Below, piece after piece: positions 3,552-28,520 of a stretch of 28,520 nt of DNA. Source of the stretch: Gammaproteobacteria bacterium (GTDB lineage: Bacteria > Pseudomonadota > Gammaproteobacteria > SZUA-140); NCBI GenBank assembly GCA_026994735.1, contig JALWQD010000074.1, positions 1-28,520 on the forward strand. The letters are read 5' to 3'. Made by a program: the position numbers and the translations under genes. A model generated the notes under the pieces. That model saw nothing but the letters and a program-made list of their open reading frames with translations. It did not search any database and was not told the DNA's origin. How positions within the stretch are numbered: position 1 is the first letter of the stretch; each line of letters opens with the position of its first letter.

Positions 3552-3632
3552 TGCTGCCCCTTTCTCTTGTTATCTGCTGGCAGGGAATATCATCATAAAT
3601 TACCGTTACTATAAACCGCCTAGAAGGTTTTT

Positions 3633-5069: not shown

Positions 5070-5160
5070 TCCCTCTCATGATTTCGGGGCACTTTACAAT
5101 GCCTTCCAGTCATCTGCGTCAATGAATCCTCACCGGCTGCTGAAGACACTTGCCGACGTC

Positions 5161-6399
5161 TCAGATTTCAAGCAACATCCGCGCCGGGTCTTCCAACAGC
5201 TGCTTGATGTGAACCAGGAACTGCACTGCTCCACGTCCGTCGATAAGACGGTGATCATAGGACAGGGCGACATACATCATCGGCCGAACAACAATTTCAT
5301 CAGCAATCACTACGGCACGCTTTTCAATCTTGTGCATGCCGAGAATGGCACTCTGAGGGGGATTAATAATCGGTGTTGACAGCAGAGAACCGAAAACGCC
5401 ACCATTGGTGATCGTGAAGGTGCCGCCAGTCATCTCTTCAATATCCAGTCGCCCTTCATTGGCTCGACTGGCAAAATCCGTGATTTGCTGCTCTGTCACC
5501 GCCATTGTCATTTGGTCAGTATCACGCAGCACGGGCACAACGAGCCCACGCGCCGATGCCACGGCAATACCGATATCGTAATAGCCATGGTAAACAATTT
5601 CGTCGCCATCAATAGAGGCATTGATATCGGGAAAGTGTTTCAAGGCATCGGTAACTGCTTTGACAAAAAAAGACATGAAGCCCAGACGCGCCGCATGACG
5701 TTGCTCGAATTGTTTGCGGTAACGCTGTCGTAAATCAATGACCGCCTGCATGTCGATTTCATTAAACGTCGTCAGGATGGCGGCACTTTGCTGAGCATCC
5801 AGCAGACGGTCGGCAATCACTGCCCGCAAGCGGCTCATGGGCTCGCGTTTTTCCGGCCGGTTGCCCCCCGGAAAAGCATAGACAGGTGAGCTGACAGGCC
5901 CCTCTTTTTGTCCTTCATTAACCATCACGGCCGGCGGCTGCTGGTCAAGAAAACGGATAACATCGTCCTTGAGGATACGCCCCCCTTGTCCGCTGCCAAC
6001 AATATCAGCAACATCCAGCTGCTGTTCGGCAATCAAGCGACGTGCTGAAGGTGTTACCAGGCGCGCTTCATCAGTGGCTGCGGCTTCTGTCACTGCCGCA
6101 ACCGTACTGTCTTTTGTAGCAATAGCAGGCTTTACCATCGCAGCCACGGTTTTCTTTACCTCACCCGCTTGCAAGGCTGCCAGCGGCTGCCCCGACTTAA
6201 CGATGCTGCCTTCGTCGGCAAATATCTGCACTAACTTTCCAGCACTCGGAGCAGGTACTTCAAAAACGACCTTATCGGTTTCAATGTCGGCGACAATCTC
6301 ATCACGGCCCACGTCATCACCCGGCCGTTTATGCCAGCAAACGACTTTCCCGTCTTTAACCGACTCGGGAAAACTCGGCACCTTGATTTCAATCGTCAT
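5161..6399 (-). CDS. sucB: 2-oxoglutarate dehydrogenase E2 (dihydrolipoamide succinyltransferase)
   Basis: Lipoyl domain ETDKV, peripheral-subunit-binding [21 protein letters not shown], catalytic DHRLIDG. Confidence 0.96.
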
Positions 6400-6552
6400 C
6401 TGCCTTCCTCCATGCTGTGGCCGCTGCTGGCCTCTTCTGAGATCTGGATACCGCGAGCGAATTAATCATTGTTAACAAAAAATCGTCGGGCCACTAGAAA
6501 CAATCGCCCGCATGACAACGCATTTGTCGTCAAACTCCCGGATTCAAAACAG

Positions 6553-9408: not shown

Positions 9409-9485
9409 GACTCCTTAGCCAATGGTCTTACCATCTATGATCGTCTCTTAGCTGGCCGTTTCATAACGACCGGCAGCACCCTGAA

Positions 9486-10517
9486 TCAAGCAGTCATTGC
9501 CAAACGCTCACGAATCTGTTCGGCATGAGGCGTATCGCCCTTCGCATCACAGATTTCCGCCAAAAGAGCCAATGCCCGACGGTTATCCGGCATCCGCTGC
9601 AGAATTTGACGGCAGTCATCTTCCGCCTCTGCCAGGCGGCCAGCACTCAAGTATGCACGACTGAGGCCTAAATGCGCATAGAGATCAAAGCCACATTCAA
9701 GACTTTGATTATAATAATCAAGAGCCTCGTCAAAACGACCCAACGATAAGCAGGCATCACCCACGCGAGTATAGAGATTCTGGTTCTCTGGTTCCTGTTC
9801 AAGAACAGTCAGCCAAACTTCAATCGCTTTTTCAAGCTGTTGCAAGCCGCGAAAACAATTGCCCAAGCCATATAAGGCGAATGGATTTTGCTCATCGATG
9901 GCCAGCGTCCGCCGGTAAAATCCCATCGCCACATCAAAACGCTTCTGACGCTGATGCATATTACCCATCATTGTCAATACAGCGATATTACTATCATGCA
10001 ATTTGAGATATTTCTCAAAACTGGCAATAGCCGTCTTGTCATCGCCCGTTTTGTAACAGAGGTTACCGATACCAAGCAGGGCATAGAGATCATTACCACC
10101 ACGTTCAAGGGCCTTTAGATAAAGCGCATAGGCTTCACGAAAAGCACCCTTCTTGCGATAAGAATCCGCCAAACGAACCATGACCATCGTATCTCCTGGC
10201 TTACACTGTAAGTAGCGTTTCCAGAAAATAATGGCTTTGTCCGGCTTTTGCAGACCACGATAAGCATTACCCATACCCCGTAATGCAAAAACATTTTCCT
10301 GGTCGATTTCGAGCAACTGCTCGTAATAATCGATTGCATCACGAAAGCGCTTCAATTTCCGACAGACATCGCCTAATCCGACAAGGACGTAGGCATTTCC
10401 GCTCGACAGCTCGTAAGCCTCGAGAAAGGCCGCCTCTGCGTCACGGTAGCGTCGCTTATTGAGCAGGGCATAACCCTTGCGTGAGAGCCTGACGACTGCC
10501 CTGGCATCACCGCTCAT
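9486..10517 (-). CDS. All-TPR (tetratricopeptide repeat) protein, no signal peptide, function unknown
   Basis: 343 aa made of about nine 34-aa repeats with the N-x-x-A-L-x-G-L-G-x-x-Y pattern (NAYVLVGLGDVCR, NVFALRGMGNAYR, NPFALYGLGNCFR). GGGAG upstream of the start. Confidence 0.85.
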   Translation of the reverse strand: MSGDARAVVRLSRKGYALLNKRRYRDAEAAFLEAYELSSGNAYVLVGLGDVCRKLKRFRDAIDYYEQLLEIDQENVFALRGMGNAYRGLQKPDKAIIFWKRYLQCKPGDTMVMVRLADSYRKKGAFREAYALYLKALERGGNDLYALLGIGNLCYKTGDDKTAIASFEKYLKLHDSNIAVLTMMGNMHQRQKRFDVAMGFYRRTLAIDEQNPFALYGLGNCFRGLQQLEKAIEVWLTVLEQEPENQNLYTRVGDACLSLGRFDEALDYYNQSLECGFDLYAHLGLSRAYLSAGRLAEAEDDCRQILQRMPDNRRALALLAEICDAKGDTPHAEQIRERLAMTA

Positions 10518-10997
10518 CTTTTCTATCTCCCGAATAGTGGGTCTTCAATATCAGTAACGAGTCTGGACAGATAATCTTTAGCGATTAGCCATTGCTAGCG
10601 CAAAAAATAATCAATCCGTTGTTATTATTCTGTAGAAACTAGATACGCAGCCTGACATCCGTGACTAGCGTTGATAACGCATCAAACTGAAGGCAATCAA
10701 TCAGCCCTCCTTCTGACAACTGACCAGGCCATAAAGGGCCTGCGTTTATCGTTCCGGGCTATCAGCCCGCCTTAATAATCAGGTTGCTCATGTTCTGCCG
10801 GCCACTACGCGCCAGATAACCATCATACAAGATGCGAGTCATTATGAAAATGCTCCAATTCATTGTATGCATTCAGCTTCAGAGAGCGATAAAAAAAACA
10901 GCTTTTGAAAAACACAAAAGCCATCCATTAACAACCATCCCTTGGAACTTTGATACTTGTCAGCCCGATATGTTCCCATAAAGATAGAAACACTTCC

Positions 10998-11396
10998 TTA
11001 AACTAGGCTTTTTACCCATAAAGTCACGAATGCCAGACAATAGTCACGTTCATCGGACAAACTGACATGACTCTGCGAAATCCCAAAACGCCTCACAAGG
11101 CGCTCGGTCTTATCCAGATAATAGAGCATAGGACGCCCCATGCTGTCATGACTGAGACCAATTTCACACATCGACACACCTTGACGAAAGCCAGTACCGA
11201 GAGCCTTTGCAGCCGCCTCTTTGACTGCAAACCGCTTTGCCAGCATACGCGCCTGCAAGCGCTTATCCTTGCGCAAACCCAGCTCATGCCATTCCTGCTC
11301 GGTCAGAATCCGACGACAAAAACGCTCACCGAAACGATTGAGGCAAGCTTCAATACGAGGAATATGAACAATGTCGGTACCGATACCGTGAATCAC
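10998..11396 (-). CDS. acpS: Holo-[acyl-carrier-protein] synthase
   Basis: [37 protein letters not shown] start overlaps the pdxJ stop. Confidence 0.95.
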
Positions 11397-12136
11397 CCTG
11401 CCGATGCCTCACGCATCAAACGGAGCATTTCCCGAACGGCACAGCCAAGCCCGGAAAAGAGAGCCCTGGCAATAATCGCATGGCCGATATTGAGTTCACT
11501 GATACCTGGAATAGCGGCGATCGCAGCAACATTTTGGTAATTGAGGCCATGGCCGGCATTCACCTGTAAACCCAATTGCAGACCATGATCGACAGCATCC
11601 CTGATACGCATCAAAGCTTGTTGCCGCTCTGCGCGTCTACGCATATCGGCAAAGTGACCGCTATGTATCTCAATCACCCGGCAGCCCGTCTCGGCAGCTG
11701 CCGCAACCTGCTTCGGATCGGGGTCAATAAACAGGGAAACCTGACAGCCGGCAGCCTGTAATTGCTGGCAGGCATCACCAATGCGCGATAATTGACCGAC
11801 CACATTCAAGCCACCCTCTGTCGTCAATTCCTGACGGCGCTCTGGCACCAGACAGCAATCTGCCGGCTTTATTTCACATGCCAGGGCAAGCATCTCGTCG
11901 GTTACCGCCATCTCCAGATTCATGCGTGTCTGCAAAACCTCGTTAAGCAGGCGCACATCGCGTTCCTGTATATGCCGGCGATCTTCCCGCAGGTGAACCG
12001 TGATCGCATCGGCACCGGCCTGTTCAGCTACCCGGGCAGCCTCCACTGGCTCCGGATAGCGTGTCCCACGCGCCTGCCTGAGGGTGGCAACATGATCGAT
12101 GTTAACACCCAACTGGATCATATTTTTCATTCTCAC
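11393..12136 (-). CDS. pdxJ: Pyridoxine 5'-phosphate synthase
   Basis: [57 protein letters not shown]. The start could instead be the ATG at 12130 or 12121. Confidence 0.96.
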
Positions 12137-12166
12137 TCATCCATCCTTATACATTCAAAAAAATGA

Positions 12167-12943
12167 TCAATCGTCTATCTGCACATGAGCAGCAAGCTCT
12201 GCCCTGCGAGAAAAAAGACACCAGCTGCGCAGTGGCTTGCCGTCAAGACAGGCAAGAATAATACGACGCATAAGGTTACGGGCAATACGCGCCGATTGCT
12301 CATCACGCAAATCATCTGCTGCCAGCTGTAACAACACCTGACCAGGTACAACCAGGCTACTGCTGTGCGGCTTGTCAGCCAGCAGCGGCCCTTGCAAGGG
12401 CAGATAAATATATTCCGCCTCGGCAACAATCGCCAGCCCATTCTCGATATCCTGCGTCAGAAGCGGTCGATAACCAATAAGCGTGAGTAATTGCAATTCA
12501 AAACGTCGCAGGCAACGGTGCAGGGCCAGCCGACCTGTCATCATTGCCTGTGGCAACTCTGCCAGCGTCTCGACATAGAGATCAAAAACATCTGGACAGG
12601 GGTCATGACGATGCAACAAACGCATCAATAATTCATTGATATAAAGACCGCTAAACAAGCTGTCCCCCGTCAGTAGCTGGGGTGTCGTAGCGGCATCAGC
12701 ACTGCGCAAGCTGCCCAGCTCCCCACGCCCCTGCCAGACTATCTGCAGACGGCAAAAGTGTTGGTTAACAACATACTGAGCTGAACGGGGTTGGCGTGCG
12801 GCCCGACAAACCAAGCCGACACGGCCATGTTCACGGGTGAGCAAATCAGCAATCAGGCTACTGTCCCGATAGGGTCTACGATGCAATAAATAGGCTTCAT
12901 CCTGGCTGCGCAGACGATGCCCGAAAGAATGCTTATTCGTCAT
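12167..12943 (-). CDS. recO: DNA repair protein RecO
   Basis: AYLLHRRPYRDSSLI, EHGRV, LFSGLYINELL, RRFELQLL, GKPLRS. I place the start at ATG 12943, overlapping the era stop; the ORF-track extension to 13066 lies inside era. Confidence 0.92.
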   Translation of the reverse strand: MTNKHSFGHRLRSQDEAYLLHRRPYRDSSLIADLLTREHGRVGLVCRAARQPRSAQYVVNQHFCRLQIVWQGRGELGSLRSADAATTPQLLTGDSLFSGLYINELLMRLLHRHDPCPDVFDLYVETLAELPQAMMTGRLALHRCLRRFELQLLTLIGYRPLLTQDIENGLAIVAEAEYIYLPLQGPLLADKPHSSSLVVPGQVLLQLAADDLRDEQSARIARNLMRRIILACLDGKPLRSWCLFSRRAELAAHVQIDD

Positions 12944-13841
12944 AACCGAGCGAACGCAAGGCACGCTCATCGTCAGACCAACCCTCCTTGACCTTGACCC
13001 ACAAACGGAGGAACACCTTGCGTTCAAAGATCTTCTCCATAGCCTCTCTTGCCTGACTGCCGACACGCTTTAACTGCTGTCCCTGGCGTCCGATGACAAT
13101 AGATTTTTGCGCCGCACGTTCAACCCAGATCAAAGCCGAAATATCGAGCAGCTTTTCTTCTTCTTTAAAATGCTCAATTTCCACTGTCAAGGCATAGGGT
13201 AATTCCTGATCAAGCTGACGCATCAGACGCTCACGAACAATTTCAGCAGCCAGAAAACGCTCACTGCGATCCGTCACCTGATCTTCTGAAAACAACGCCG
13301 GTGCGGCAGGTAACAGTTCCGTAACCACCTTCTCAAGTAATTCGACCTGCGCCCCCTTACGCGCCGACAGTGGAATCACCTGGTGAAAGGGATAACGGTC
13401 TGCAAGACTGGCAATAACCGGCAGCAATTGCTCTTTGTCATTGACACGATCAACCTTGTTGATGGCCAGGATAACGGGTACATCGACACGCTCAAGATGC
13501 TCCAGAATCAATGCTTCTTCATCGCCCCACTTACGATAATCAACCAACATGACGATGACATCAACGCCCATAAAGGCATTGCTGGCTGTCCGGTTCATCA
13601 TGCGGTTAATGGCCCGCCCTGCCGTCGGGTGAATACCTGGTGTATCGACATAGACGACCTGGCTGTCAGCTTCGCTACGGATACCCAGAATCGAATGGCG
13701 TGTCGTTTGTGGTTTGTGCGAAGTAATACTGACCTTCTGCCCCAAAATTCGATTAAGCAGTGTTGATTTACCCGCATTTGGTCGTCCAATAAGGGCAACA
13801 TAGCCGCAGTGTTGAAGCATAAAACCAGGTTCCATCGTCAT
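12933..13841 (-). CDS. era: GTPase Era
   Basis: GRPNAGKS, TTRH, DTPG, NKVD, SA, and KH-domain IVIGRQG / LWVKVKEGWSDD. ATGA overlap with rnc. Confidence 0.97.
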   Translation of the reverse strand: MTMEPGFMLQHCGYVALIGRPNAGKSTLLNRILGQKVSITSHKPQTTRHSILGIRSEADSQVVYVDTPGIHPTAGRAINRMMNRTASNAFMGVDVIVMLVDYRKWGDEEALILEHLERVDVPVILAINKVDRVNDKEQLLPVIASLADRYPFHQVIPLSARKGAQVELLEKVVTELLPAAPALFSEDQVTDRSERFLAAEIVRERLMRQLDQELPYALTVEIEHFKEEEKLLDISALIWVERAAQKSIVIGRQGQQLKRVGSQAREAMEKIFERKVFLRLWVKVKEGWSDDERALRSLGYDE

Positions 13842-14578
13842 CTTTTCTTTCCAGGGTTGTTGTCTTCCGTAATGACGGCAAGGACTTGCTCGGCGGCTGC
13901 CTGCTCTGCTTGACGACGACTGCCACCATCGCCAAAAACGGCTTCCGTCAGCAAGCCATCAAGACAACAGGAAACACGGAAACGGCTGCCACCAGGGAGC
14001 TTGCTCTCATCCAGCAACTGATAGATGGGCAAAGGCAAGGCACGCGCCTGTAACCACTCCTGCAAACGGGTTTTGGGGTCTTTCAGGGCTTGCTCAATGG
14101 TCAGTGTTTTTAGACGGCGAGAAAAAATTGACAAGACATAATCACGCGTCGCCTGGCCATCAGAATCGATATGAATGGCCGCAATAATTGCCTCCATGGC
14201 TCCGGCCAGAATGGAATCACGATTGGCACCGCCACTGCGCAATTCACCACTGCCCAGAACCAGGGCCTCGCAAAGCTTTAACTCGCGGGCAATCTCGGCC
14301 AATGTCTGCCCCTTAACAAGACGAGCACGCAAGCGGCTCAGAGCACCCTCGCCAGCTTCAGGAAAACGCTGATAGAGATGTTCGGCAATGATACAACCGA
14401 GCAAGGCATCGCCGAAAAACTCAAGCCGTTCATTATTCAAACGGCCAATACTACGATGCGTCAATGCCAAACCGAACAGTGCCTGGTCATGAAAGCGATA
14501 ATCAAGCCGGCGAGTCAGGCGTTGTGCCGCTACCGTCTGACCACTGGAAAGTGTTCGTTTAGAGCTCTGCACGTTCAT
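13838..14578 (-). CDS. rnc: Ribonuclease III
   Basis: ALTHRS, NERLEFFGDA signature, dsRBD KDPKTRLQEWLQ and SRRQAEQAAA. Lies in the lepB-rnc-era context. Confidence 0.95.
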   Translation of the reverse strand: MNVQSSKRTLSSGQTVAAQRLTRRLDYRFHDQALFGLALTHRSIGRLNNERLEFFGDALLGCIIAEHLYQRFPEAGEGALSRLRARLVKGQTLAEIARELKLCEALVLGSGELRSGGANRDSILAGAMEAIIAAIHIDSDGQATRDYVLSIFSRRLKTLTIEQALKDPKTRLQEWLQARALPLPIYQLLDESKLPGGSRFRVSCCLDGLLTEAVFGDGGSRRQAEQAAAEQVLAVITEDNNPGKKR

Positions 14579-14927
14579 TAAAATGAACTATCAAATCGAT
14601 ATTTGCCAACAGAGGCTTACGCACCTCGTATTCAATAACAATGGCTTTTTTCTTGCCATTCTTTTCGATATGAATATTTTCACGTTTGACGCTGTCAATA
14701 TCATTAACATCAAATTGTCGAATCAGGCGATCCCGAATGGTCTTTGTGCTTGCCTTCTTCACACCGTCTTCATCGGCGACTATTTTAAGCGAGGAGACAA
14801 CGCTGAAGTATTCAACATAAACGGGAATCAGACGCATACCAATTGAGGCAATAAATACAATCATGACTAACACTGCCAGAAATGATGTCATTGTCATTCC
14901 TGACATATTTCGTGAACCATTGTGCAT
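14559..14927 (-). CDS. DUF4845-family small membrane-anchored protein with pilin-like N-terminus
   Basis: 122 aa, SG-MTMTSFL followed by a hydrophobic helix, PVYVEY, YEVRKPLLANIDLIVHF. Occupies the usual slot between lepB and rnc. Confidence 0.8.
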   Translation of the reverse strand: MHNGSRNMSGMTMTSFLAVLVMIVFIASIGMRLIPVYVEYFSVVSSLKIVADEDGVKKASTKTIRDRLIRQFDVNDIDSVKRENIHIEKNGKKKAIVIEYEVRKPLLANIDLIVHFNERAEL

Positions 14928-14955
14928 CGTAGTTACCTCCGATTGACAATAATGA

Positions 14956-15744
14956 TCACTGGATACGCATGCCGATTCGGTTCCAATGGACGCTTGAGAT
15001 CGATGAATCCCAGTTCATCCAGATCATAAAGGCTTTGCCGACAAGATTCTCTTCCGGCACGGTACCCCAGAAGCGACTGTCATTGCTATTATCCCGGTTA
15101 TCACCCATGACAAAATAACGGCCGGCCGGCACGATAAATTCACCTTCCGAAAAACGCCGACTTGTCTGCACCAATATCCGGTGATCAATGTCACCCAGAT
15201 GTTCTGTCCGCAGACTCGCCCCGCTAACGCGGATGCCTTCGCCCATACCGGTATAAATTCCTTCTGATTTTTGTTCCGCTGGCTGACCATTAATGTAGAC
15301 CGTCTTATTTTGATAGCGAATCGTATCACCTGGCAAACCAACAATACGTTTAATATAATCCACAGAGGGATCTTCCGGGAAGCGGAAAACAACCACATCG
15401 CCCCGTGCTGGCTCATCAATGTCGATAACCTTTAGACCAAATAAAGGCAGCCTGATTCCATAAGAAAACTTGTTCACAAGAATAAAATCACCGACCTGTA
15501 AGGTTGGCAACATTGAACCCGATGGAATCCGAAAAGGTTCCGCCAGAAATGAACGCAGTACCAGGACAATCAATATAATAGGAAAAAATGAGACCGCATA
15601 TTCGACAACAACGGGTTGAGATATCTCTTCGCCCTCACCAACTGCGGCACGACGTTTGGGAGCAAAAACCCAGACATCACCCGCCCAAATGATGGCGCTT
15701 GCCACCAAGGCAATCAACATCATCGCCTGAAAATCAAAGTTCAT
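14956..15744 (-). CDS. lepB: Signal peptidase I
   Basis: EPFRIPSGSMLPTL (catalytic Ser), DYIKRIVGLPGD (catalytic Lys), GDNRDNSNDSRFWG. TAATG overlap with lepA. Confidence 0.97.
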   Translation of the reverse strand: MNFDFQAMMLIALVASAIIWAGDVWVFAPKRRAAVGEGEEISQPVVVEYAVSFFPIILIVLVLRSFLAEPFRIPSGSMLPTLQVGDFILVNKFSYGIRLPLFGLKVIDIDEPARGDVVVFRFPEDPSVDYIKRIVGLPGDTIRYQNKTVYINGQPAEQKSEGIYTGMGEGIRVSGASLRTEHLGDIDHRILVQTSRRFSEGEFIVPAGRYFVMGDNRDNSNDSRFWGTVPEENLVGKAFMIWMNWDSSISSVHWNRIGMRIQ

Positions 15745-17537
15745 TATTTCTTACCTGTATGCAGTACCGCAAGAAAGGCATCCTGCGGGATTTCAACCGA
15801 ACCCAATTGTTTCATGCGTCGCTTACCCGCTTTCTGTTTTTCCAGCAATTTACGTTTTCGTGAAACATCGCCGCCATAACACTTGGCTGTTACATTTTTA
15901 CGCAGTGCCTTCACTGTTTCGCGTGAAATAATTTTCGACCCGATAGATGCCTGAATGGCCACATCAAACATTTGTCGTGGAATCAGCTCACGCATTTTTT
16001 CAACCAACTCACGCCCTCGCTGAACTGCCCGTTCACGATGGACAATATATGATAAGGCATCAACCCGCTCGCCATTGATCAATAAATCAAGACGCACAAG
16101 GTTAGCGGCTTGAAAACAGTCGAGATTATAGTCAAGCGAGGCATAACCACGACTGACTGATTTCAGACGATCATAGAAATCGACGACCATCTCACTCATT
16201 GGCAACATAAAACTCACCGCTACCTGTTGGCCATGATAGATCATCTTTTTTTGAACACCGCGCTTTTCAATGCATAGTGTAATCACTGCCCCCAAAAATT
16301 CCTGCGGGACAAGGATGTCGGCTTCAATGATCGGCTCGCGAATTTCAGCAATCGTTCCAACATCCGGCAAGCGCGAAGGGTTATCAATCAAAACCACATC
16401 ACCGGATGTCAAGATAACCTCATAGACCACTGTCGGCGCAGTCGTAATCAGATTCAGATCATATTCCCGTTCAAGCCTTTCCTGGATAATTTCCATATGC
16501 AGCATACCCAGAAAACCGCAACGAAAACCAAACCCCAGCGCCTGCGAAGTTTCAGGCTCGTAAAATAAGGCAGCATCATTCAACCGCAATTTTGACAGTG
16601 CCTCACGGAGGGCTTCATAGTCCTCTGCGCTGACGGGGAAAAGACCGGCAAAGACCTGCGGTTTAATCGCTTTGAAACCAGGCAATGCCTGTTCGACAGG
16701 ATGATTGCTTAACGTCAATGTATCGCCCACCGGAGCCCCTTCAATCTCCTTGATCCCGGCAATAACAAAACCAACCTCACCGGCATGAAGGACGGAACGT
16801 GATAACGGTTTGGGCGTAAAAACACCGACCTTATTGACAGGATAGCTACGCCCGGTGGACATTATTGTAATCTTGTCGCCAACAGGTAAACGACCATTAA
16901 CGACACGTACCAGCGACACTACTCCGAGATAATTATCGAACCATGAGTCAATTATCAATGCTTGCAAGGGGCCCTCTGAGCTGCCTTTTGGTGCCGGAAT
17001 ACGGTCGATCAGCGACGCCAGCAAGGCATCGACACCGAGGCCAGTCTTGGCACTCACCTCAAGCGCATCGGTGGCATCGACACCAATAATATCTTCAATC
17101 TCCTGACAGACGCGATCCGGGTCTGCAGTCGGCAGATCAATTTTATTGAGAACAGGAATCACTTCCAGGCCTTGTTCTATCGCCGTATAGCAATTGGCAA
17201 CCGTTTGTGCCTCGACACCCTGCGAGGCATCCACTACCAATAACGCCCCTTCACAGGCAGCAAGAGAGCGCGACACCTCATAGGAGAAATCAACATGGCC
17301 GGGAGTATCAATGAAATTAAGCTGGAATACCTGACCATCACTGGCCGTATAGTCGAGTGTTACGCACTGGGCCTTGATCGTAATACCGCGCTCACGCTCA
17401 AGATCCATCGAGTCAAGCACCTGAGCCGACATTTCTCGATCACTGAGACCGCCACAAATCTGAATCAAACGGTCAGCAAGAGTGGATTTACCATGATCAA
17501 TATGGGCAATAATCGAGAAATTACGAATGTTCTGCAC
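15744..17537 (-). CDS. lepA: Translation elongation factor 4 (LepA)
   Basis: [53 protein letters not shown] place the start at GTG 17537 (MQNIRNF, with GGTGA SD); the ORF track gives TTG 17552. Confidence 0.97.
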
Positions 17538-17600
17538 GTCACCATCACACAATGAGGGTTAAAACGGGCGACAGACAACAACATCTCATCCCCCGCACCC

Positions 17601-17634
17601 AAAAAAATCATCAGGGGCCGACGAGCGGCCCCTG
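17601..17634 (-). terminator. Intrinsic-terminator-like hairpin between mucD and lepA
   Basis: Perfect 9-bp stem CAGGGGCCG-ctcgt-CGGCCCCTG followed by ATGA and T7 on the minus strand. Confidence 0.6.
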
Positions 17635-17710
17635 CAGTGACGACATTCTACCGGCTAGCGCCGGAGAATCCCAGTTAATCTGAGGCCCCTGTCAACCGTT
17701 AGCGCAGCCA

Positions 17711-19168
17711 CTATTGAGACAAACGTAAAGCGAGAAAGCGCGGGCTGCCCCGGCGCTGAATAAGCACGCGCACAGGATGATCAACCTCGAGTTGATCAAC
17801 CAGCTTCGCTAATTGTGCAATATCGATGATGTCATCATTATTCACTTTCAAAATCACATCACCGGCAAGGATCCCTGCACGTGCAGCGGGCCCATCATCA
17901 ACCTCGTCAACCATGATTCCCGTTGTCACTGACAACTTGTCCTTCTGCTCGCCATTGAGATTGCTAACTGTCATCTGCAGACGCGATAAAACCCGTTTCC
18001 CGGCCTCAACTGAGCCTTGCTGTGCCAATTGATTGTCTGCTGGCAGCTCGTTGAGTGTCACCGTCAGTGTTTTAGCCTTGCCCTGACGAATAATGTCAAG
18101 ACGTACGCGACTACCAACGCGACTACTGCCCACCAGTGGCGGCAAATCCGATGAACTGCCGATCTCATGGCCCTCGAATGATACGATGACATCACCGACC
18201 TCAACGCCGGCCTTCTCCGCCGGACTATCGGGCAAAACACGGGAAACCAACGCGCCGACAGGCTTATCCATAGAAAAAGACTCGGCCAATTCGCGTGTCA
18301 CATCCTGAATCAGTACTCCCAGCCATCCGCGTGAAACATGCCCTGTCTCCTTGATCTGTTCAACAACATTCATCGCCAAATCAATAGGAATTGAAAATGA
18401 AACGCCCATATAGCCACCGGTACGGCTATAGATCTGGGAATTAATTCCGATCACCTCGCCATCAAGATTATAGAGCGGCCCACCTGAATTACCGGGGTTA
18501 ATGGCGACATCCGTCTGAATAAAAGGTGTGTAGTTCTCATTCGGCAGACTGCGACGAATAGCGCTGACAATCCCCGCCGTCACAGAGTGATCAAAACCAA
18601 AGGGCGAACCAATTGCCAGCACCCAGCTGCCAACCTTGACGCTGGCAGACTGTCCAATGCGGGCAACAGGCAAATTATCGGCGTCAATCTTCAATAAGGC
18701 CACATCACTGCGATCATCCGACCCAATGACCTTGGCCATAAATTCTCGCCGATCGCTGAGCCGGACGACAACTTCATCGGCATCCTTGACGACATGCGTA
18801 TTGGTCAGGATATAGCCATCCGTCGAAACAATAAATCCTGACCCGAGTGAACGCTGCTCGCCCTGAATACCGGGAATACGGCCTTGCCCCTTGTCACCAA
18901 AGAATTTGCGCAGCAAATCCTCCATTGAGGGGTCCATGCCATGGGGCAGCCGGAAGGCTCCCTTCGACTCTTCTTTGTTATGGGTCGTCGTACTGATATT
19001 GACGACAGCCGGTGCACTACGCTCTACCAGCTCGGTAAAATCTGGCAAGGCTACCGTAGCCTGTACAGCCCAAGCAGGAGAAACGAGTAATAACATCACC
19101 GCCAGCAGGCATAAATAGCTTCCCCGCCAGCGAATAACAGCAGGCAACAGAAAGGCAAAATTCTTCAT
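17711..19168 (-). CDS. mucD: DegP/MucD-type periplasmic serine endoprotease with two PDZ domains
   Basis: Signal peptide ending PAWA; LPDFTELV, SLGSGF, TNTHVV, SDVALLKI, QTDVAINPGNSGGPL, RGWLGV; two PDZ domains. Located downstream of rseC. Confidence 0.9.
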   Translation of the reverse strand: MKNFAFLLPAVIRWRGSYLCLLAVMLLLVSPAWAVQATVALPDFTELVERSAPAVVNISTTTHNKEESKGAFRLPHGMDPSMEDLLRKFFGDKGQGRIPGIQGEQRSLGSGFIVSTDGYILTNTHVVKDADEVVVRLSDRREFMAKVIGSDDRSDVALLKIDADNLPVARIGQSASVKVGSWVLAIGSPFGFDHSVTAGIVSAIRRSLPNENYTPFIQTDVAINPGNSGGPLYNLDGEVIGINSQIYSRTGGYMGVSFSIPIDLAMNVVEQIKETGHVSRGWLGVLIQDVTRELAESFSMDKPVGALVSRVLPDSPAEKAGVEVGDVIVSFEGHEIGSSSDLPPLVGSSRVGSRVRLDIIRQGKAKTLTVTLNELPADNQLAQQGSVEAGKRVLSRLQMTVSNLNGEQKDKLSVTTGIMVDEVDDGPAARAGILAGDVILKVNNDDIIDIAQLAKLVDQLEVDHPVRVLIQRRGSPRFLALRLSQ

Positions 19169-19208
19169 CAGTAACTCCTCTGCAGGGAAATTATAAACAT
19201 GGACAGGA

Positions 19209-19694
19209 CTATTTACCGGGGAGAGTCCAGCTTATCGGAGAAACAGCTGATAAACGTTCGACAATACGTGCATTATAGCGATCATCCTTAGCCAAAATAT
19301 GAGAAAATCGACGCAAGCACAGACATCCGATAAGCAGTCCGGTAAAACCCAAAAAAATCACCAGGCCTTCACCTTCCGGATCGGCAAATAATGGTTGCAG
19401 GATGTCACCGAGCAAGGCGCCGGCAAAAAGACTCAGCAATGGAAACATGTAGGCCATCAAAGAACCGCGCACGAGCACTTCATCAGCAATGGCAACAAGG
19501 ACACGATCACCAACCACAGCAGCAATTTCGTTATCGACACGAATCCGCATTTTCCTGCCAGTAAAAAAGCGTGCGACAATACCTGTACCGCACCCCTTAC
19601 TGGCCGTACAACTACCACAAGCGGTTCGCCGCAGGGCCTCAACCCACGCATGATCACCTTCAACAGCGATGACCTCCGCTTCTTCGGTAATCAT
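19209..19694 (-). CDS. rseC: RseC/MucC family SoxR-reducing membrane protein
   Basis: MITEEAEVIAVEG, ACGSCTASKGCGTG Cys motif, YMFPLL, two TM helices. Confidence 0.92.
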   Translation of the reverse strand: MITEEAEVIAVEGDHAWVEALRRTACGSCTASKGCGTGIVARFFTGRKMRIRVDNEIAAVVGDRVLVAIADEVLVRGSLMAYMFPLLSLFAGALLGDILQPLFADPEGEGLVIFLGFTGLLIGCLCLRRFSHILAKDDRYNARIVERLSAVSPISWTLPGK

Positions 19695-19761
19695 AATGAG
19701 TGTCGTTTATCCTCGCGTCGTGACAACGATGCCCGACAGATGCAACATAGGCACCCAGGTA

Positions 19762-20445
19762 TCAATAACTGGCAAGACTGACATGGCGCAACATATCATT
19801 ACCCGAACTGCTTTGAGAATAGCGGCTGTAATTAACTAGGTAGTCATAGAAGTCAGCCGCTTCCTGAGGGTAATTGACATTATTTGTAGCTACATTCTGG
19901 CCCGCTGAGGCCAGCACAACCCGTGCCGAATGGGCACTCTGTGCGGAAGAAAATGCCGCACTTGCAAGCGGACCTTCCGCTCTTGTGGCCGAAGCCATCT
20001 GAGCATTGGCAACAATGGCAGTATTCGCTGCCAGAGATTGCACAGGCATTGAATCAGTCGCTGGTGAAAAGGAGCCCATATTGAAAATAGCCAGTGCCGA
20101 CAATGATGCGGCAAGAGCAAAACCAACAGCTGGCACCGTCCGCCGAGGCAGTGTTGCTACCTTTGCTTGCCGGATGGCTGTCTGCTGCGGGGATGCCTCA
20201 TCCATCTGCGGTAACAGATAACTCGGCTCGGAGGCAATCGCTTTCGCTACAGACGCCGCAACATCAAAGTTCATTGTCTCGGGCAGTGACCGTCGCATAG
20301 CGTCACCAATTATATGGTAATCCTGCCAGTGCTGCTGTAACTGGCCAGCTTTCGACAACTGGTCAAGAACTTGATCAAAGTCTGCCTTCTCGACCTCACC
20401 ATCGGCCAGCATCGAAACCTTTTCAGCATTTACTTCATTCATCAT
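19762..20445 (-). CDS. rseA: Anti-sigma-E factor RseA/MucA
   Basis: EKVSMLADGE, WQDYHIIGDAMR N-terminal domain, a single TM (VGFALAASLSALAIF), periplasmic tail. Follows rpoE. Confidence 0.9.
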   Translation of the reverse strand: MMNEVNAEKVSMLADGEVEKADFDQVLDQLSKAGQLQQHWQDYHIIGDAMRRSLPETMNFDVAASVAKAIASEPSYLLPQMDEASPQQTAIRQAKVATLPRRTVPAVGFALAASLSALAIFNMGSFSPATDSMPVQSLAANTAIVANAQMASATRAEGPLASAAFSSAQSAHSARVVLASAGQNVATNNVNYPQEAADFYDYLVNYSRYSQSSSGNDMLRHVSLASY

Positions 20446-20488
20446 CTTACACTCCGTTTAGCGGCTCCTGGATCAGAGCTAGCAATGC

Positions 20489-21067
20489 TCAAGACTCAAG
20501 CATGGGCCGCAGACGTTTCTGTATCGCTTCACGGGCGCGGAAGATTCGTGACCTTACCGTTCCCACAGGACAATCCATCCTTAGGCTGATCTCTTCGTAA
20601 CTCAAACCTTCAAGTTCACGCATCATAATTGCTTCCCGCAACTCCGCAGGCAAACGGTCAATGGCATCGACAACCGTTTTCTCAATCTCGTCCCTCTGGT
20701 AGAGACGTTCCGGCGTTGCTGTTTCCTTCAACTCACCGGCTGTTTCAATATGTTCAGCATCGTTAATCTCAATATCAACACCGGGTGGCCGACGCCCCTG
20801 AGCGATAAGATGATTCTTCGCCGCATTGACGCCAATCCGGTAGAGCCAGGTATAAAAGGCACTCTCACCGCGAAAAGACGGCAATGCCCGGTAGGCTTTG
20901 ATAAACGCTTCCTGCGTCACGTCAAAGACTTCCTCTGAATCATGCACATAGCGTGATATCAGTTTCGCCAGTCGATGTTGGTATTTCTGTACAAGGATGT
21001 CAAAAGCCTTCTTATCACCCTGTTGTACACGTTCGACTAACTGCTGGTCTGTACTGCTCTCGCCCAT
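20489..21067 (-). CDS. rpoE: ECF sigma factor sigma-E (RpoE/AlgU)
   Basis: DQQLVERVQQGDKKAFDILVQKYQH, FRGESAFYTWLYRIGVN, RELEGLSYEEI, CPVGTVRSRIFRARE. Confidence 0.97.
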   Translation of the reverse strand: MGESSTDQQLVERVQQGDKKAFDILVQKYQHRLAKLISRYVHDSEEVFDVTQEAFIKAYRALPSFRGESAFYTWLYRIGVNAAKNHLIAQGRRPPGVDIEINDAEHIETAGELKETATPERLYQRDEIEKTVVDAIDRLPAELREAIMMRELEGLSYEEISLRMDCPVGTVRSRIFRAREAIQKRLRPMLES

Positions 21068-24329: not shown

Positions 24330-25661
24330 TTACGGTTGAGCTATCCTGGCTACACCACCAAAGCTACCAACCCAGAGCGCCCCATCGTCGGCAATATCCA
24401 TCGAAAAGACATTATCGGCAAACAGGCCATCGGCACGTGTCAAGATCGTGAAACTCTTTTTATCATCATCAAAGCGTACCAAGCCATTACTTGTACCGGC
24501 CCAAAGACGATCGTCATCATCAAGATAGAGCATAAAGATATGATTCGCAGGCAAGCCATCGGCTGTCGTCAGGTTCTTCCAGTTCTGGCCATCGAACCGG
24601 GCCAGGCCGCCGCCCCAGGTACCACACCAAACGATCCCTTGGCGGTCAACAACCATCGAAATAATGTAATTCGGGTTGTAGGCAACCTTGACATTCTCCA
24701 TACCCTGCGCCGATTTCTGTTGCGCATGATGGCGGGATGATTTAGCCGGATCATTGGTAAATTGGATGGCATCCTTTACCAGCTCATAGGGAGCACCAAG
24801 ACCATCACTGTGTTTCCAATGCTTCCATTGGCCATTACGATAGCGCGCCAGGCCTTCCTCGGTAGCAAACCACATATCACCATTCAAACCTTCTTCAATA
24901 CCATAGACCCAGGGGTTTGGCAGGCCGCCGGCCGTATTCTCAACGGTAAACGTCGTCCATTGATCGGGATCATCGAGCTTACCCGCAGTGACCCGGTTAG
25001 CACCGGACCAGGTAGCAATCCAGACATCACCATTGCGAGTCTTGACAACCTCATAGACAAATTGATCAGCCAGTCCCTGGGGAATATTGTAATTTTGCCA
25101 TTTGTCTGCCGCCGGGTCGTACAATGACAGTCCACCACCATAGGTGCCTACAGCCAAGCGTTGCCCCAGTTTGCTGATATGAAAAATACCGTTCGAGAGC
25201 AGGCCAGGAATCTTGTTATTGTAGAGCTTGTGGCTATCATCGCGACTATCGTAGCGGATCACTCCACCTGACGTGCCAATCCAGGTAATGGGGCCATCGC
25301 TGACAACACCCTTGACGTTACGATTGCCAACACGAAAATGAGCAAAACGATTATCGCCCTTGGCTACCGCTGGCTTGGCCTCAGGCGTTTCCGTGGCCGG
25401 CGTCGCCATCGCAGGCAAAACAGACTGGGGCGCACTGCCACCACTGCGCGCGGCACGAATCACTGGCTGGGTCATCGGTGGATGATTGCTTGGCAATATG
25501 GTGCTTTCAGTCACCACACCCGCGTCTTTTTGCGCAGCACTTGTCAGCCTATTACCAGCGCCTGCGCTGTCACCCTGATGGGCACCAAATTGATAGCTGG
25601 CAATCAATAAGCCGCCAATAATAAATACCAGCAGAGCCAGCGTAGTATGATTCATTTTCAC
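24330..25661 (-). CDS. Stand-alone 7-bladed beta-propeller protein (two-component-regulator-propeller-like repeats) with an N-terminal membrane anchor or signal and an Ala/Pro-rich linker
   Basis: Seven repeats of (GL-x-x-x-x)-V-Y-x-I/V-x-x-D-x-x-G-x-x-W-x-G/A-T-x-G-G-L/V-x-R-F/Y-D. Hydrophobic N-terminus LALLVFIIGGLLIA. No Y_Y_Y, kinase or output domain follows blade 7. Confidence 0.8.
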   Translation of the reverse strand: MKMNHTTLALLVFIIGGLLIASYQFGAHQGDSAGAGNRLTSAAQKDAGVVTESTILPSNHPPMTQPVIRAARSGGSAPQSVLPAMATPATETPEAKPAVAKGDNRFAHFRVGNRNVKGVVSDGPITWIGTSGGVIRYDSRDDSHKLYNNKIPGLLSNGIFHISKLGQRLAVGTYGGGLSLYDPAADKWQNYNIPQGLADQFVYEVVKTRNGDVWIATWSGANRVTAGKLDDPDQWTTFTVENTAGGLPNPWVYGIEEGLNGDMWFATEEGLARYRNGQWKHWKHSDGLGAPYELVKDAIQFTNDPAKSSRHHAQQKSAQGMENVKVAYNPNYIISMVVDRQGIVWCGTWGGGLARFDGQNWKNLTTADGLPANHIFMLYLDDDDRLWAGTSNGLVRFDDDKKSFTILTRADGLFADNVFSMDIADDGALWVGSFGGVARIAQP

Positions 25662-25688
25662 GATTTGATCTTTCCTGAAGTCAACAAT

Positions 25689-26786
25689 CTATTCTGTTAC
25701 GGGTGGACCGCTAACCGACGGGCTATCGACACCAATACGAGCCACATTGCCTCGACTGCCGGCCCAGACATCACCATTCGCTGTTACCTGCACGGCATAG
25801 ACGGGGCCTGCTGGCAAGCCAGAATCCTGATTCACCGTCAGCCAATGATGCCCATCATAACGAGACAAGCCCTGATCGGTAGCAAACCAGAGACGGCCGT
25901 CGCTGTCTTCACTGATAGCAAAAACAATATCGCCGGCAAGCCCATCACTGACGGTCAGGTTGTGCCACTGTTGGCCGTCAAAATGGCTGACACCACCTCC
26001 CCAGGTGCCAACCCAGACAGAGTTGTCACGAGCAACATGGATGGCAAAAGCATAGCCCGGATTATAGGTTGGCTCGCCCTCGCTGAGAACACTGATGTTA
26101 TGACGGTCACGTGTCCCCAGGCCGGTATTTTTGCTCGCCGCCAGATGACGGTTATTGGGTGCCCCGAGACCATCATCATGCGTCCATTCTTGCCATTTTT
26201 TGCCGTCAAACATTGACACGCCACCTTCCGTGGCGAACCAGACACGATCCTGGTCATCAACGGCAATCCCATAGACCCATTCGTTAACCAGTTCGCCGTA
26301 AAACGTCTGCCATCTGTCCGCTCCAGGATCATAGCGATTCGCGCCCGCCCAGGTGCCCATCCAGATAGCTCCATTGGCCTGTTCAGCAAACGCATAGACC
26401 CAATAATCGGCCAATCCGTGCAAGGGGAAAAACGTCCGCCATGTTCCCTCCTTAAAACGTGAAACGCCACCACCGTTAGTGCCAAACCATTTATTCCCCT
26501 GGCTATCGGCCATGACAGCAAAGACGTATTCATTGGCCAGACCAGAAGCGCGAGTAAATGTCCGCCGCAGATCGCGGCTGGCCAGGTCGACCTCGTGGAC
26601 ACCCAGTGATGTCCCGACCCAAAGGCTGTTGCGCTGAGTATCAACGGCAAGGCTACGAACATAAACATCCTTACCAACCTCAAAGGCCTCAAGAACATGG
26701 GGCGTTGCCGCATCTGCAGCCCATAGAGGGCTTATCGGAATAATAACCGACAGCCAGAAAAGAAAGCCTGGCATACGAAGAATCAT
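25689..26786 (-). CDS. Secreted stand-alone 7-bladed beta-propeller protein, paralog of 24330..25661
   Basis: Signal peptide ending PLWA-AD; seven blades of the same repeat; no output domain. ATGA overlap with the upstream cytochrome c gene. Confidence 0.8.
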   Translation of the reverse strand: MILRMPGFLFWLSVIIPISPLWAADAATPHVLEAFEVGKDVYVRSLAVDTQRNSLWVGTSLGVHEVDLASRDLRRTFTRASGLANEYVFAVMADSQGNKWFGTNGGGVSRFKEGTWRTFFPLHGLADYWVYAFAEQANGAIWMGTWAGANRYDPGADRWQTFYGELVNEWVYGIAVDDQDRVWFATEGGVSMFDGKKWQEWTHDDGLGAPNNRHLAASKNTGLGTRDRHNISVLSEGEPTYNPGYAFAIHVARDNSVWVGTWGGGVSHFDGQQWHNLTVSDGLAGDIVFAISEDSDGRLWFATDQGLSRYDGHHWLTVNQDSGLPAGPVYAVQVTANGDVWAGSRGNVARIGVDSPSVSGPPVTE

Positions 26787-27085
26787 CTCAGGGTTCTCAA
26801 AAAAGCGACGAGGGCATATAACTCATCACGACTAAAACGGCCGGCAAAGGCAGGCATCATCCCCTGCCCCTGCTCAATCGAGGATACCACTTGCTCATCG
26901 GCACGCAATAACCGTTCGCCGCGTGAAAAATCAGGCATAGCGGGCATGAGTGGCTGGCCATTAGTACCATGACAGTTCTGGCAGTGACGCATATAGAGAC
27001 GACTGCCAACAGTCGTATCAGCCGCCATTAGCGGGCTACTCAACAATAACAGCACGAGGCTGATCAGTAGTAGAAATCGACTCAT
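26783..27085 (-). CDS. Periplasmic monoheme class I cytochrome c (c6/c553-like, probable His/Met ligation)
   Basis: Signal peptide ending PLMA-AD, G-x-x-L-Y before CQNCH, distal MMPAF, C-terminal LVAFLRTL helix. GGAG upstream of the start. Confidence 0.9.
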   Translation of the reverse strand: MSRFLLLISLVLLLLSSPLMAADTTVGSRLYMRHCQNCHGTNGQPLMPAMPDFSRGERLLRADEQVVSSIEQGQGMMPAFAGRFSRDELYALVAFLRTLR

Positions 27086-27182: not shown

Positions 27183-27752
27183 TCACGACGCCGGAAACAG
27201 ATCGGCAAGGATACTACCATCTCCGTCCCGGGCCAATTGCCGCAAGGCCTCGACGACCGCAGCAGCATCCCATACCTGTTCACCCACCACTCGCCGCAGC
27301 AAGACACCCTGGGCGGAAATAATAAAAGTATCCGGGTAAATACGGATACCAAGAAGACGATTGGCAATATCCTGTTGACTGTCAATAAATGACGGCAGAT
27401 CGAGATCACGCTGACGTAGGTATTCACGCGCCAAAACTGGGTCCTTGTCTACTGATAGCAGAATGACTTCCATGCCCTCATCGGCCAATAGCCCTTGCAA
27501 ACGTTGTAAACTGGGCAATTCACGACGACAGGCTGAACACCAGGTAGCCCAGACATTAACAATCAATAGCTGGCCACGATAACTGTCCAGACGACGATCG
27601 GACTGACTGAGCCCGGTCAGGGTAAGGTTGGGGAACTGACTGCCTTCACGCAACTTATCTGGCGGCGCGGTCTGATCACACGCCGACAACAACAAAAGCA
27701 GGCACAACAAACTGCAGCGGAAGGAGTTAAAAAAGTAATCCGTCATTAACAT
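27183..27752 (-). CDS. TlpA/ResA-family thiol-disulfide oxidoreductase lipoprotein
   Basis: Lipobox LSAC, RGQLLIVNVWATWCSACRRELPSL thioredoxin motif, SVD, cis-Pro loop YPDTFII. The start may be the ATG at 27746. Confidence 0.88.
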   Translation of the reverse strand: MLMTDYFFNSFRCSLLCLLLLLSACDQTAPPDKLREGSQFPNLTLTGLSQSDRRLDSYRGQLLIVNVWATWCSACRRELPSLQRLQGLLADEGMEVILLSVDKDPVLAREYLRQRDLDLPSFIDSQQDIANRLLGIRIYPDTFIISAQGVLLRRVVGEQVWDAAAVVEALRQLARDGDGSILADLFPAS

Positions 27753-27912: not shown

Positions 27913-28520
27913 CTAGGGAACAATCTCATTAATAACTATCTCCGGCACCTGACTGCCAACAGCAACAACAGCACTCAGTCCCTGCAAGTCACCACTACTC
28001 GGCATGGCATTGCCAGTGTGAGAAATACGTGCGCCGACGACAACCTGGGAAAAACGAGCCAAACTCATCTGTGGTGTCATCGCCATAGACTCATCGAGGA
28101 CGAAATCTAGCGGCAAATCACGTACCTGAACACGCTTTACGGCGAGTGGCATCGGCGGTCCGGAGGCCGCGCGGGCAAAGATAAAAACCGTATCATCGGC
28201 AGCAGCACGGCCAGCCAATGATGGCGATAAACTGACACGCCCAGTCAGTCGTGCCGGGCCATTACCAGCGGCCGCAGGCGCTGATGCCATGTTCTTCTGC
28301 ATATCGGGCATGCTTTGTGCTGAAGGCGGTGGACGCCCTTCGAGCAGGGCCTGTGCCTCAGCAATATTAGCGGCCATCGTGCGTGCCGTTTCTGAACCGG
28401 CAGGTAACTGTGTCGCCAACTGACGCCATAACTGCACCGCTTCAGCATAACTCCCTTGTTCAAATGCTGCGGTACCGGCTAGCCAGAGAGCCTTCTGGTT
28501 GTTAGGGTCAATCATCAACG
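27913..28520 (-). CDS. ccmI: Cytochrome c-type biogenesis protein CcmI/CycH, C-terminal part (5' end outside the window)
   Basis: TPR end DPNNQKALWLAGTAAFEQGSY..A..LW, then the CcmI C-terminal domain VSLSPSL...DTVFIFARAASGPPMPLAVKR...LPLDFVLDESMAM...VVVGARISHTGNAMPSSGDLQG. Frame is open to the window edge. Confidence 0.85.
   Translation of the reverse strand, partial: LMIDPNNQKALWLAGTAAFEQGSYAEAVQLWRQLATQLPAGSETARTMAANIAEAQALLEGRPPPSAQSMPDMQKNMASAPAAAGNGPARLTGRVSLSPSLAGRAAADDTVFIFARAASGPPMPLAVKRVQVRDLPLDFVLDESMAMTPQMSLARFSQVVVGARISHTGNAMPSSGDLQGLSAVVAVGSQVPEIVINEIVP

Follow-up and report, generated by a model that had tools for sequence, protein, structure and literature searches.

Twin periplasmic Reg_prop propellers encoded beside a cytochrome c share a conserved insertion between blades 4 and 5

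Two adjacent genes on a stretch of gammaproteobacterial DNA encode a pair of β-propeller proteins, here named propeller A and propeller B, both of which carry a long insertion between their fourth and fifth blades. The stretch analyzed, referred to as the window, comprises 28,520 nucleotides (positions 1 to 28,520) of contig JALWQD010000074.1 in assembly GCA_026994735.1, assigned to the lineage SZUA-140 of the Gammaproteobacteria. An earlier note, written from the sequence alone, had proposed that the insertion is a family-defining lid or arm with a conserved Arg-His and that it might supply a metal or haem ligand, close over a central pocket or swap between the two subunits. We refer to this insertion as the lid. 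The two genes, their lids and the key lid residues are listed below; residue numbers in the 443-amino-acid form of propeller A equal those of the 441-amino-acid form, counted from the ATG, plus two.

24330..25661, minus strand: propeller A, 443 amino acids (441 if counted from the ATG), whose seven Reg_prop blades are preceded by an N-terminal transmembrane helix and a linker of about 75 residues
24666..24812, minus strand: lid of propeller A, the blade 4–5 linker spanning H284–Y332 (H282–Y330 in the 441-residue form), delimited by translation, AlphaFold2 model and conservation
24726..24731, minus strand: codons of the His-His pair in the A lid, H311-H312 (H309-H310 in the 441-residue form), invariant in 120 sequences
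25689..26786, minus strand: propeller B, 365 amino acids, with a Sec signal peptide, seven Reg_prop blades and no cysteine
26052..26180, minus strand: lid of propeller B, the blade 4–5 linker from H203 (in H-x-DGLGAP) to Y245 (in YNPxY), delimited by translation, AlphaFold2 secondary structure and conservation
26100..26111, minus strand: codons of the B lid tip, R226-D227-R228-H229 (within G-L-G-T-R-x-R-H), with R226, R228 and H229 invariant in 121 sequences

Searches against Pfam detected only Reg_prop (PF07494) repeats in the two proteins, scoring 63.6 bits for A and 93.4 bits for B at a cut-off of 20.4 bits, and none of the curated NCBIfam models fitted either one. Over the whole propellers A and B are 36% identical, which identifies them as paralogues. 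Each has thousands of homologues at E ≤ 1e-10, the best 120 of which are 55–75% identical. AlphaFold2 models, built on alignments of 120 sequences, reached a mean predicted local distance difference test (pLDDT) value of 91 for B and 86 for A, the latter pulled down by a disordered N-terminal linker, and both comprise seven four-stranded blades. Foldseek matched the models to the solved structures 4a2l and 3v9f at E-values of about 1e-17; the nearest solved folds to B are the sensor propellers BT4663 and BT3049, together with the Vgb lyase. Covalent attachment of haem to the propellers was ruled out, as neither contains a CxxCH motif and B lacks cysteine altogether; the single cysteine of A is not conserved.

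The insertion itself was confirmed in both proteins. On the minus strand, positions 24666–24806 (DGLGAP to YNPNY) translate to a 47-residue segment of the 443-residue protein, and positions 26052–26174 (DGLGAP to YNPGY) to a 41-residue segment of the 365-residue protein; the W-x-H-x that precedes DGLGAP in each propeller falls just outside these intervals, which are those of the earlier note. In the AlphaFold2 models, the two insertions occupy the same place, between strand 4 of blade 4 and strand 1 of blade 5. This linker measures 39 residues in B and 46 in A, and the remaining inter-blade linkers are as short as had been proposed, at 8–10 residues in B and 9–13 in A. Strand 1 of blade 5, which begins with YNPxY, is also elongated, at 10–11 residues versus 6–8 in the other blades.

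The anchors on either side of the lid, described previously as nearly identical between the two proteins, are equally constant across homologues: conservation is at least 98% for H203, G206, G208, N242, P243 and Y245 of B and for H282, G285, G287, Y326 and N329 of A (441-residue numbering). The set of B anchors that are invariant or nearly so also includes N211, and the invariant positions of A are D302, P303, S307, H309, H310, G318, Y326 and N329 in the same numbering. Lid length is almost fixed, with 41 residues from the DG to the final Tyr in 84 of 93 B sequences and 47 residues in 114 of 115 A sequences. Mean column identity of the lids is 76%, compared with 75% for the propeller core of B and 78% for that of A. 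The anchor Asp is 83–88% conserved; betaproteobacterial A proteins have Lys, Asn or Ser in its place. Across the 80 loci fetched for comparison, divergent betaproteobacterial A proteins included, the lid signatures persist with the sole exception of one B protein carrying R226Q. The window proteins carry both motifs (G-L-G-T-R-x-R-H in B and S-x-H-H-A in A) as well as both lengths. The insertion is clearly beyond chance. Searches with the lid peptides against PDB sequences returned no match even at E = 10.

The proposal that the insertion defines a family was borne out by its fixed length, by conservation at the level of the propeller core and by its rarity elsewhere. When B was used as a HMMER query against a library of 1.8 billion proteins, only 2 of the 150 best-scoring Reg_prop representatives, which are mostly large multi-propeller sensor kinases, contained the motif, and both belong to the B family. 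Because of this restricted occurrence, the insertion is, as judged from these comparisons, a synapomorphy of a cytochrome-linked twin-propeller family. Propeller B was found in more than 570 species representatives, and of 400 genomes sampled evenly across the class, 37 (about 9%) carry it, one copy each. The carriers include Gallionella, Sideroxyarcus, Sedimenticola, Motiliproteus, Thiohalobacter, Rhodoferax and many uncultured Chromatiales. The module also turns up, in typical proteobacterial form, on contigs labeled Anaerolineales, Litorilinea, Chitinophaga pinensis and Deltaproteobacteria (loci L038, L048, L051 and L058); these labels probably reflect binning errors rather than the true distribution.

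The claim that an Arg-His is kept at a similar position in both loops held for B and failed for A. G222, G224, T225, R226, R228 and H229 show no variation in the B alignment, and N220, T221 and L223 show almost none. The tip motif, G-L-G-T-R-x-R-H, was retained in 78 of 82 B sequences scanned, with one R226Q substitution in the set, and tip residues 220–231 show a mean column identity of 95% versus 75% for the whole propeller. When the locus search selected the two best-conserved stretches of B, T-G-L-G-T-R-x-R-H was independently among them. The first 'RH' of the B protein in the window, R213-H214, is not conserved. What is constant in A is the His-His pair, present in every A copy of the fetched loci, and the residue before it is variable (Gln, Ser, Asp, Lys, Arg, Met and others), the commonest accounting for 31%; Arg occupies this position in approximately 13 of 115 A homologues (about 11%).

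In an alignment of 40 B and 40 A lids, R228 of B pairs with the first His of A and H229 with the second, and the Arg of the A protein in the window falls opposite the variable D227 of B. The [Arg/His]-His lies 24 to 26 residues after the DGLG anchor in both lids, the six extra residues of A following it. Because the Arg-His of B aligns with the His-His of A, the interior residue common to both lids is, on this alignment, a single His; the residue before it is Arg in B and His in A. This alignment replaced a profile–profile alignment of the two family alignments, which was skewed by one chimeric row and useless for the lids. The row in question, P0204, is a 512-residue database entry in which the C-terminal half of B is joined in one chain to A without its membrane helix; instead of a genuine fusion, this may be a record that is chimeric or truncated. 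A 797-residue 'fusion' open reading frame in locus L082 was rejected as a wrong-frame artefact.

Predicted disorder of the loop, which the earlier note had named among the findings that would refute its own proposal, gives a split result for the two lids. The A lid is ordered (pLDDT 86–93), with helices at residues 290–293 and 308–316, the second being a nine-residue helix that starts at the His pair. In B both ends of the lid are modeled with confidence, and the invariant tip, residues 223–229, falls below a pLDDT of 50. Low-confidence placement of a conserved, Gly-rich, basic tip is what the model would be expected to give for a segment that becomes ordered on a ligand or partner.

Within a propeller, strand 1 of each blade lines the central shaft and starts at the entry side. 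The linkers that join strand 4 of one blade to strand 1 of the next run across the entry face, which is the usual ligand-binding side, BT4663 included (PMC5121618). We classed each residue by its place in the AlphaFold2 models and then counted near-invariant positions for each element. Such positions make up 42–48% of the entry-side linkers, 56–71% of the entry-side strand 2–3 loops and 30–38% of the lids, and 7–9% of the exit-side loops; across entry-side elements overall the share is 38–71%. Because conserved positions concentrate there, the entry face, including the lid, is the constrained surface. By propeller topology, the lids probably lie on this face beside the central shaft, in the region that holds nearly all of the invariant residues, and may cover the central pocket. 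A complex prediction for A (residues 100–441) with B (residues 26–365) gave a score of 0.01 (mark 0.32) and is not counted as evidence either way. Across paired loci, covariation of the variable tip positions in the two propellers was dominated by shared ancestry, with too few independent pairs for interpretation.

Upstream of the propeller genes, on the same strand, the window encodes three further proteins:

26783..27085, minus strand: monohaem class I cytochrome c, 100 amino acids, with CQNCH and MPAF motifs
27183..27752, minus strand: TlpA/ResA-like thioredoxin lipoprotein with the motif W-C-S-A-C
27913..28518, minus strand: C-terminal part of CcmI/CycH, the end of a cytochrome c maturation operon that extends beyond the window

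The minus-strand order is therefore the end of ccmI, thioredoxin, cytochrome c, B and A, with a 4-base overlap between the stop of the cytochrome c gene and the start of B and a gap of 27 bases between B and A. On the 3′ side of A lies a convergent nadB followed by housekeeping genes, and the remainder of the window (1519–21067) is likewise devoted to housekeeping functions (sucCD, lpdA, sucB, sucA, pdxJ, recO, lepA, a DegP-type protease, rseA and rpoE). No multihaem cytochrome, NHL or signaling gene was found near the cytochrome c/B/A module within the 28,520 nucleotides.

Neighborhood counts were obtained from the 80 fetched loci, and 81 loci were tabulated for the gene upstream of B. In the window and in most of these loci, a thioredoxin, a monohaem cytochrome c, B and the membrane-anchored A follow cytochrome c maturation genes. 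A lies directly after B in essentially every locus whose contig reaches past B, and a CxxCH-containing open reading frame lies just upstream of B in 66 of 81 loci, with none in 11 and too little upstream sequence in 4. The thioredoxin precedes the cytochrome c in most loci. Two architectures recur. The first runs ccmC–I, thioredoxin, cytochrome c, B, A, a HAMP-PAS-GGDEF-EAL protein, an NHL protein and a pentahaem cytochrome; the window corresponds to this architecture ending after A. The second runs (CcsBA), thioredoxin, histidine kinase, sigma-54 response regulator, Sel1 protein, cytochrome c, B and A. Among the 51 loci with enough flanking DNA, 46 (about 90%) adjoin a GGDEF-EAL protein, a histidine kinase or a sigma-54 regulator. 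In 25 of 29 loci with a GGDEF-EAL partner, its periplasmic domain contains CxxCH, which suggests, from the motif, that this partner carries a covalent haem sensor domain.

Several features of individual loci add to this picture. The CxxCH of the HAMP-PAS-GGDEF-EAL protein encoded just after A lies near residue 157 (L020:9468-11945 and 28 related loci). In betaproteobacterial, Sedimenticola and Motiliproteus loci (L041:2613-6842 and about 20 related loci), the kinase, the sigma-54 regulator and a secreted Sel1-repeat protein are encoded between the thioredoxin and the cytochrome c/B/A genes. Sedimenticola additionally encodes a hemerythrin-domain protein and a small multihaem cytochrome after A (L041:9311-9847), with an HNOBA-GAF-GGDEF protein further downstream. 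In Sideroxyarcus (L002:1-9068), the module follows system II genes (ResB, CcsA and a TPR protein), an NHL protein and an 825-residue multihaem cytochrome, which take the place of the ccm operon; the link to cytochrome maturation thus holds across both maturation systems. Gammaproteobacterial loci of the first architecture contain two thioredoxin-like genes, one in the ccmF–ccmH interval and the other after ccmI beside the cytochrome c. Since B has no cysteine and A a single non-conserved one, the second thioredoxin probably serves the cytochromes of the module rather than the propellers. In the segment of A containing the membrane helix (residues 1–95; window 25380–25661, minus strand), Tyr21 and Gly24 are near-invariant, and a P-x-N-H-P motif recurs in the otherwise variable linker that follows. 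Conservation of this kind exceeds what a passive anchor would need and may reflect contact with a membrane partner.

Taken together, the fold, the nearest solved relatives and the near-constant signaling neighbors favor a binding or sensing role. The best reading, which we hold with about even confidence, is that a periplasmic sensing module binds its ligand or partner at a site which the lid completes. The lid itself is an old embellishment, peculiar to this family, of the linker that connects the outer strand of blade 4 with the strand of blade 5 lining the shaft. It predates the A/B duplication, because the anchors H-x-(D)GLGAP and YNPxY are common to both paralogues. The interior then diverged, into the Gly-rich basic tip N-T-G-L-G-T-R-x-R-H of B and the helical D-P-x3-S-x-H-H-A-x-Q-K of A. 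B, a soluble protein or lipoprotein, and the membrane-anchored A make up a stand-alone periplasmic Reg_prop pair, and each lid would complete the site for a ligand or partner on the entry face of its own propeller. The cytochrome c/B/A trio would thus represent the input part of the sensing module, with output in most genomes through a haem-c GGDEF-EAL protein or through a histidine kinase and sigma-54 regulator. Judged from its residues, the Gly-rich Arg-x-Arg-His tip of B may point to an anion as ligand or to an acidic surface on a partner.

A number of observations weigh against this proposal. Part of the conservation of the entry face is accounted for by the Reg_prop repeat motif, with its GL and GG turns. 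No transducer adjoins the module in the window, nor in locus L005, its closest relative with sequence downstream of A, and a query with the periplasmic-plus-HAMP part of the GGDEF-EAL protein against the 84%-complete genome of the window returned only a HAMP-level match. No periplasmic domain common to the adjacent kinases and GGDEF-EAL proteins was detectable; having input domains of their own that are mutually unrelated, these transducers may merely regulate or accompany an effector module. B and A are, moreover, 55–70% identical across beta- and gammaproteobacterial lineages, which is high for sensor domains, and sequence identity at this level would be more typical of enzymes or fixed protein complexes.

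The same high identity fits an alternative in which the lids are protein–protein contacts, either as arms of a B–A heterodimer equivalent to a split tandem propeller or as docking surfaces for the cytochrome c or the periplasmic domain of a transducer. We regard this as rather unlikely, although B and A are adjacent wherever the contig extends, the cytochrome c is usually translationally coupled to B, solved relatives have two propellers per chain, and the low confidence of the invariant B tip in an isolated model is also what a segment ordering on a partner protein would give. Both lids are unchanged in the 11 loci that lack an upstream CxxCH open reading frame, so that they are not specialized for that cytochrome and docking to it is disfavored as their sole role; they also remain constant while the two transducer types have unrelated periplasmic domains. 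Moreover, no credible B–A fusion was present among the proteins and loci checked, the only chain with both motifs being the odd entry P0204. An unlikely reading is that the conserved His residues (H229 of B and the His-His of A, perhaps with the anchor His/Asp) bind a metal or non-covalent haem, making A and B cofactor-carrying propellers with a redox or metal-sensing function. The invariance of His in both lids, a further invariant or near-invariant His in the H-x-D anchor and the position of the genes directly after cytochrome c maturation genes of system I or II, beside a thioredoxin and a cytochrome, are in line with such a role. Covalent haem is nevertheless excluded as described above, the anchor Asp that could complete a His/Asp/His site shows the incomplete conservation already noted, and the B residue paired with the first His of A is Arg, a poor metal ligand. 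The adjacent cytochrome supplies both ligands itself, the His of its CxxCH and a Met of the MPAF type, and no known metal- or haem-binding family in Pfam or NCBIfam matched either propeller.

It is distinctly unlikely, in our estimation, that B and A form a periplasmic enzyme that uses or accompanies the cytochrome c, with the lid Arg and His as substrate-binding or acid–base residues, as in enzymes of the Vgb lyase type. Such an enzyme would account for the very high conservation across lineages and for the separate, mutually unrelated sensing domains of the adjacent regulators. The structural matches include propellers of the Vgb lyase type, and A matches the Vgb_lyase profile weakly. No enzyme family reaches threshold for A or B, however, and to our knowledge the known Reg_prop relatives, including the solved structures matched here, are binding or sensor domains rather than enzymes. 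Pyrroloquinoline quinone, considered as the cofactor of an Arg/His lid, was rejected after pqqC was not found in three of four near-complete genomes carrying the module. A highly improbable explanation is that the insertion is a structural embellishment that stabilizes the propeller and has no direct functional role; the A lid is predicted to pack on its propeller as ordered helices, yet the B tip is not predicted to pack, and the strict length, the invariant charged tip of B and the His-His of A over about 240 sequences exceed what packing needs. A bolder combination, to which we attach very little probability, is that the lids meet at a B:A interface and build between them a single non-covalent haem or metal centre, ligated by His, with Arg or a further His, from both. 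The split pair would in that case act as a periplasmic receptor of a new kind, for haem, metal or redox state, located next to the cytochrome c maturation machinery and reporting to cyclic di-GMP (c-di-GMP) or sigma-54 pathways that control extracellular electron-uptake cytochromes.

Many carriers of the module are iron-, sulfur- or electrode-oxidizing bacteria, and the module adjoins genes for cytochrome maturation, extracellular electron uptake and c-di-GMP signaling. The lid is the most distinctive and most conserved feature of the family and provides a simple sequence signature for recognizing its members. It also names the residues for mutation, namely R226, R228 and H229 of B and the His-His pair of A. 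If the lids bind the signal, they would offer a route to what these bacteria sense in the periplasm.

Among known systems, the hybrid two-component sensors of Bacteroides (BT4663, BT3049 and BT4673; PDB 4a2l, 3v9f and 3ott) have the same Reg_prop repeats and seven-bladed fold and provide the best sequence and structure matches of A and B. Their two propellers cooperate in the periplasm, with ligand binding on the entry faces close to the shafts (PMC5121618). In sensors of the BT4663 type, a single chain contains two propellers, a Y_Y_Y domain and, beyond these, a membrane span, a histidine kinase, a receiver and an AraC-type domain. A and B, in contrast, are the products of separate genes (443 and 365 amino acids) in which Pfam finds Reg_prop only, which places them outside this type; they are also coupled to a cytochrome c and a thioredoxin and are far more conserved across lineages. 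In the one blade linker covered by the sequence alignment, BT4663 has a linker of ordinary length and no insertion, where A and B have their lids of 46 and 39 residues.

The closest match in gene order comes from Tenderia electrophaga and other Tenderiales, for which a type I cytochrome maturation operon, a thioredoxin, two proteins described as 'periplasmic ligand-binding sensor domains', a haem c-di-GMP phosphodiesterase, an NHL protein and multihaem cytochromes have been reported (bioRxiv 10.1101/2022.05.06.490989). The order of this 'secondary cytochrome cluster' is that of the gammaproteobacterial loci, the likeness of the two sensor-domain proteins (ALP54649 and ALP54650) to A and B being by description only. 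Compared with this cluster, the window contains the thioredoxin/cytochrome c/B/A part only, without an adjacent haem GGDEF-EAL protein, NHL protein or multihaem cytochromes, and the same applies to L005. This was the one paper found in the literature that lists the module genes; it gives no function, contains no structural or functional analysis of them and does not mention the insertion (bioRxiv 10.1101/2022.05.06.490989), and no paper was found that mentions the blade 4–5 insertion.

Two further propeller proteins resemble A and B in part. PorZ has two Reg_prop-like seven-bladed propellers and is a kinase-free binding protein whose linkers vary in length, some with extra secondary structure. 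Unlike A and B, it is a single chain with a type IX secretion system C-terminal domain, occurs in Bacteroidota, binds anionic lipopolysaccharide and has linkers of at most 16 residues; the PorZ profile (NF052228) scores about 30 bits against A and B, far from its cut-off of 260 bits. The virginiamycin B (streptogramin B) lyase is a seven-bladed propeller of similar size, with a TM-score of about 0.75 normalized to the lyase. It differs in being a cytoplasmic enzyme with 11–16% identity and no equivalent lid, and its profile (PF24684) scores 16.7 bits against A at a cut-off of 50 bits, which leaves A outside that family. Set beside these systems, the lid is a new structural variant within a known domain family, carried by a widespread periplasmic module.

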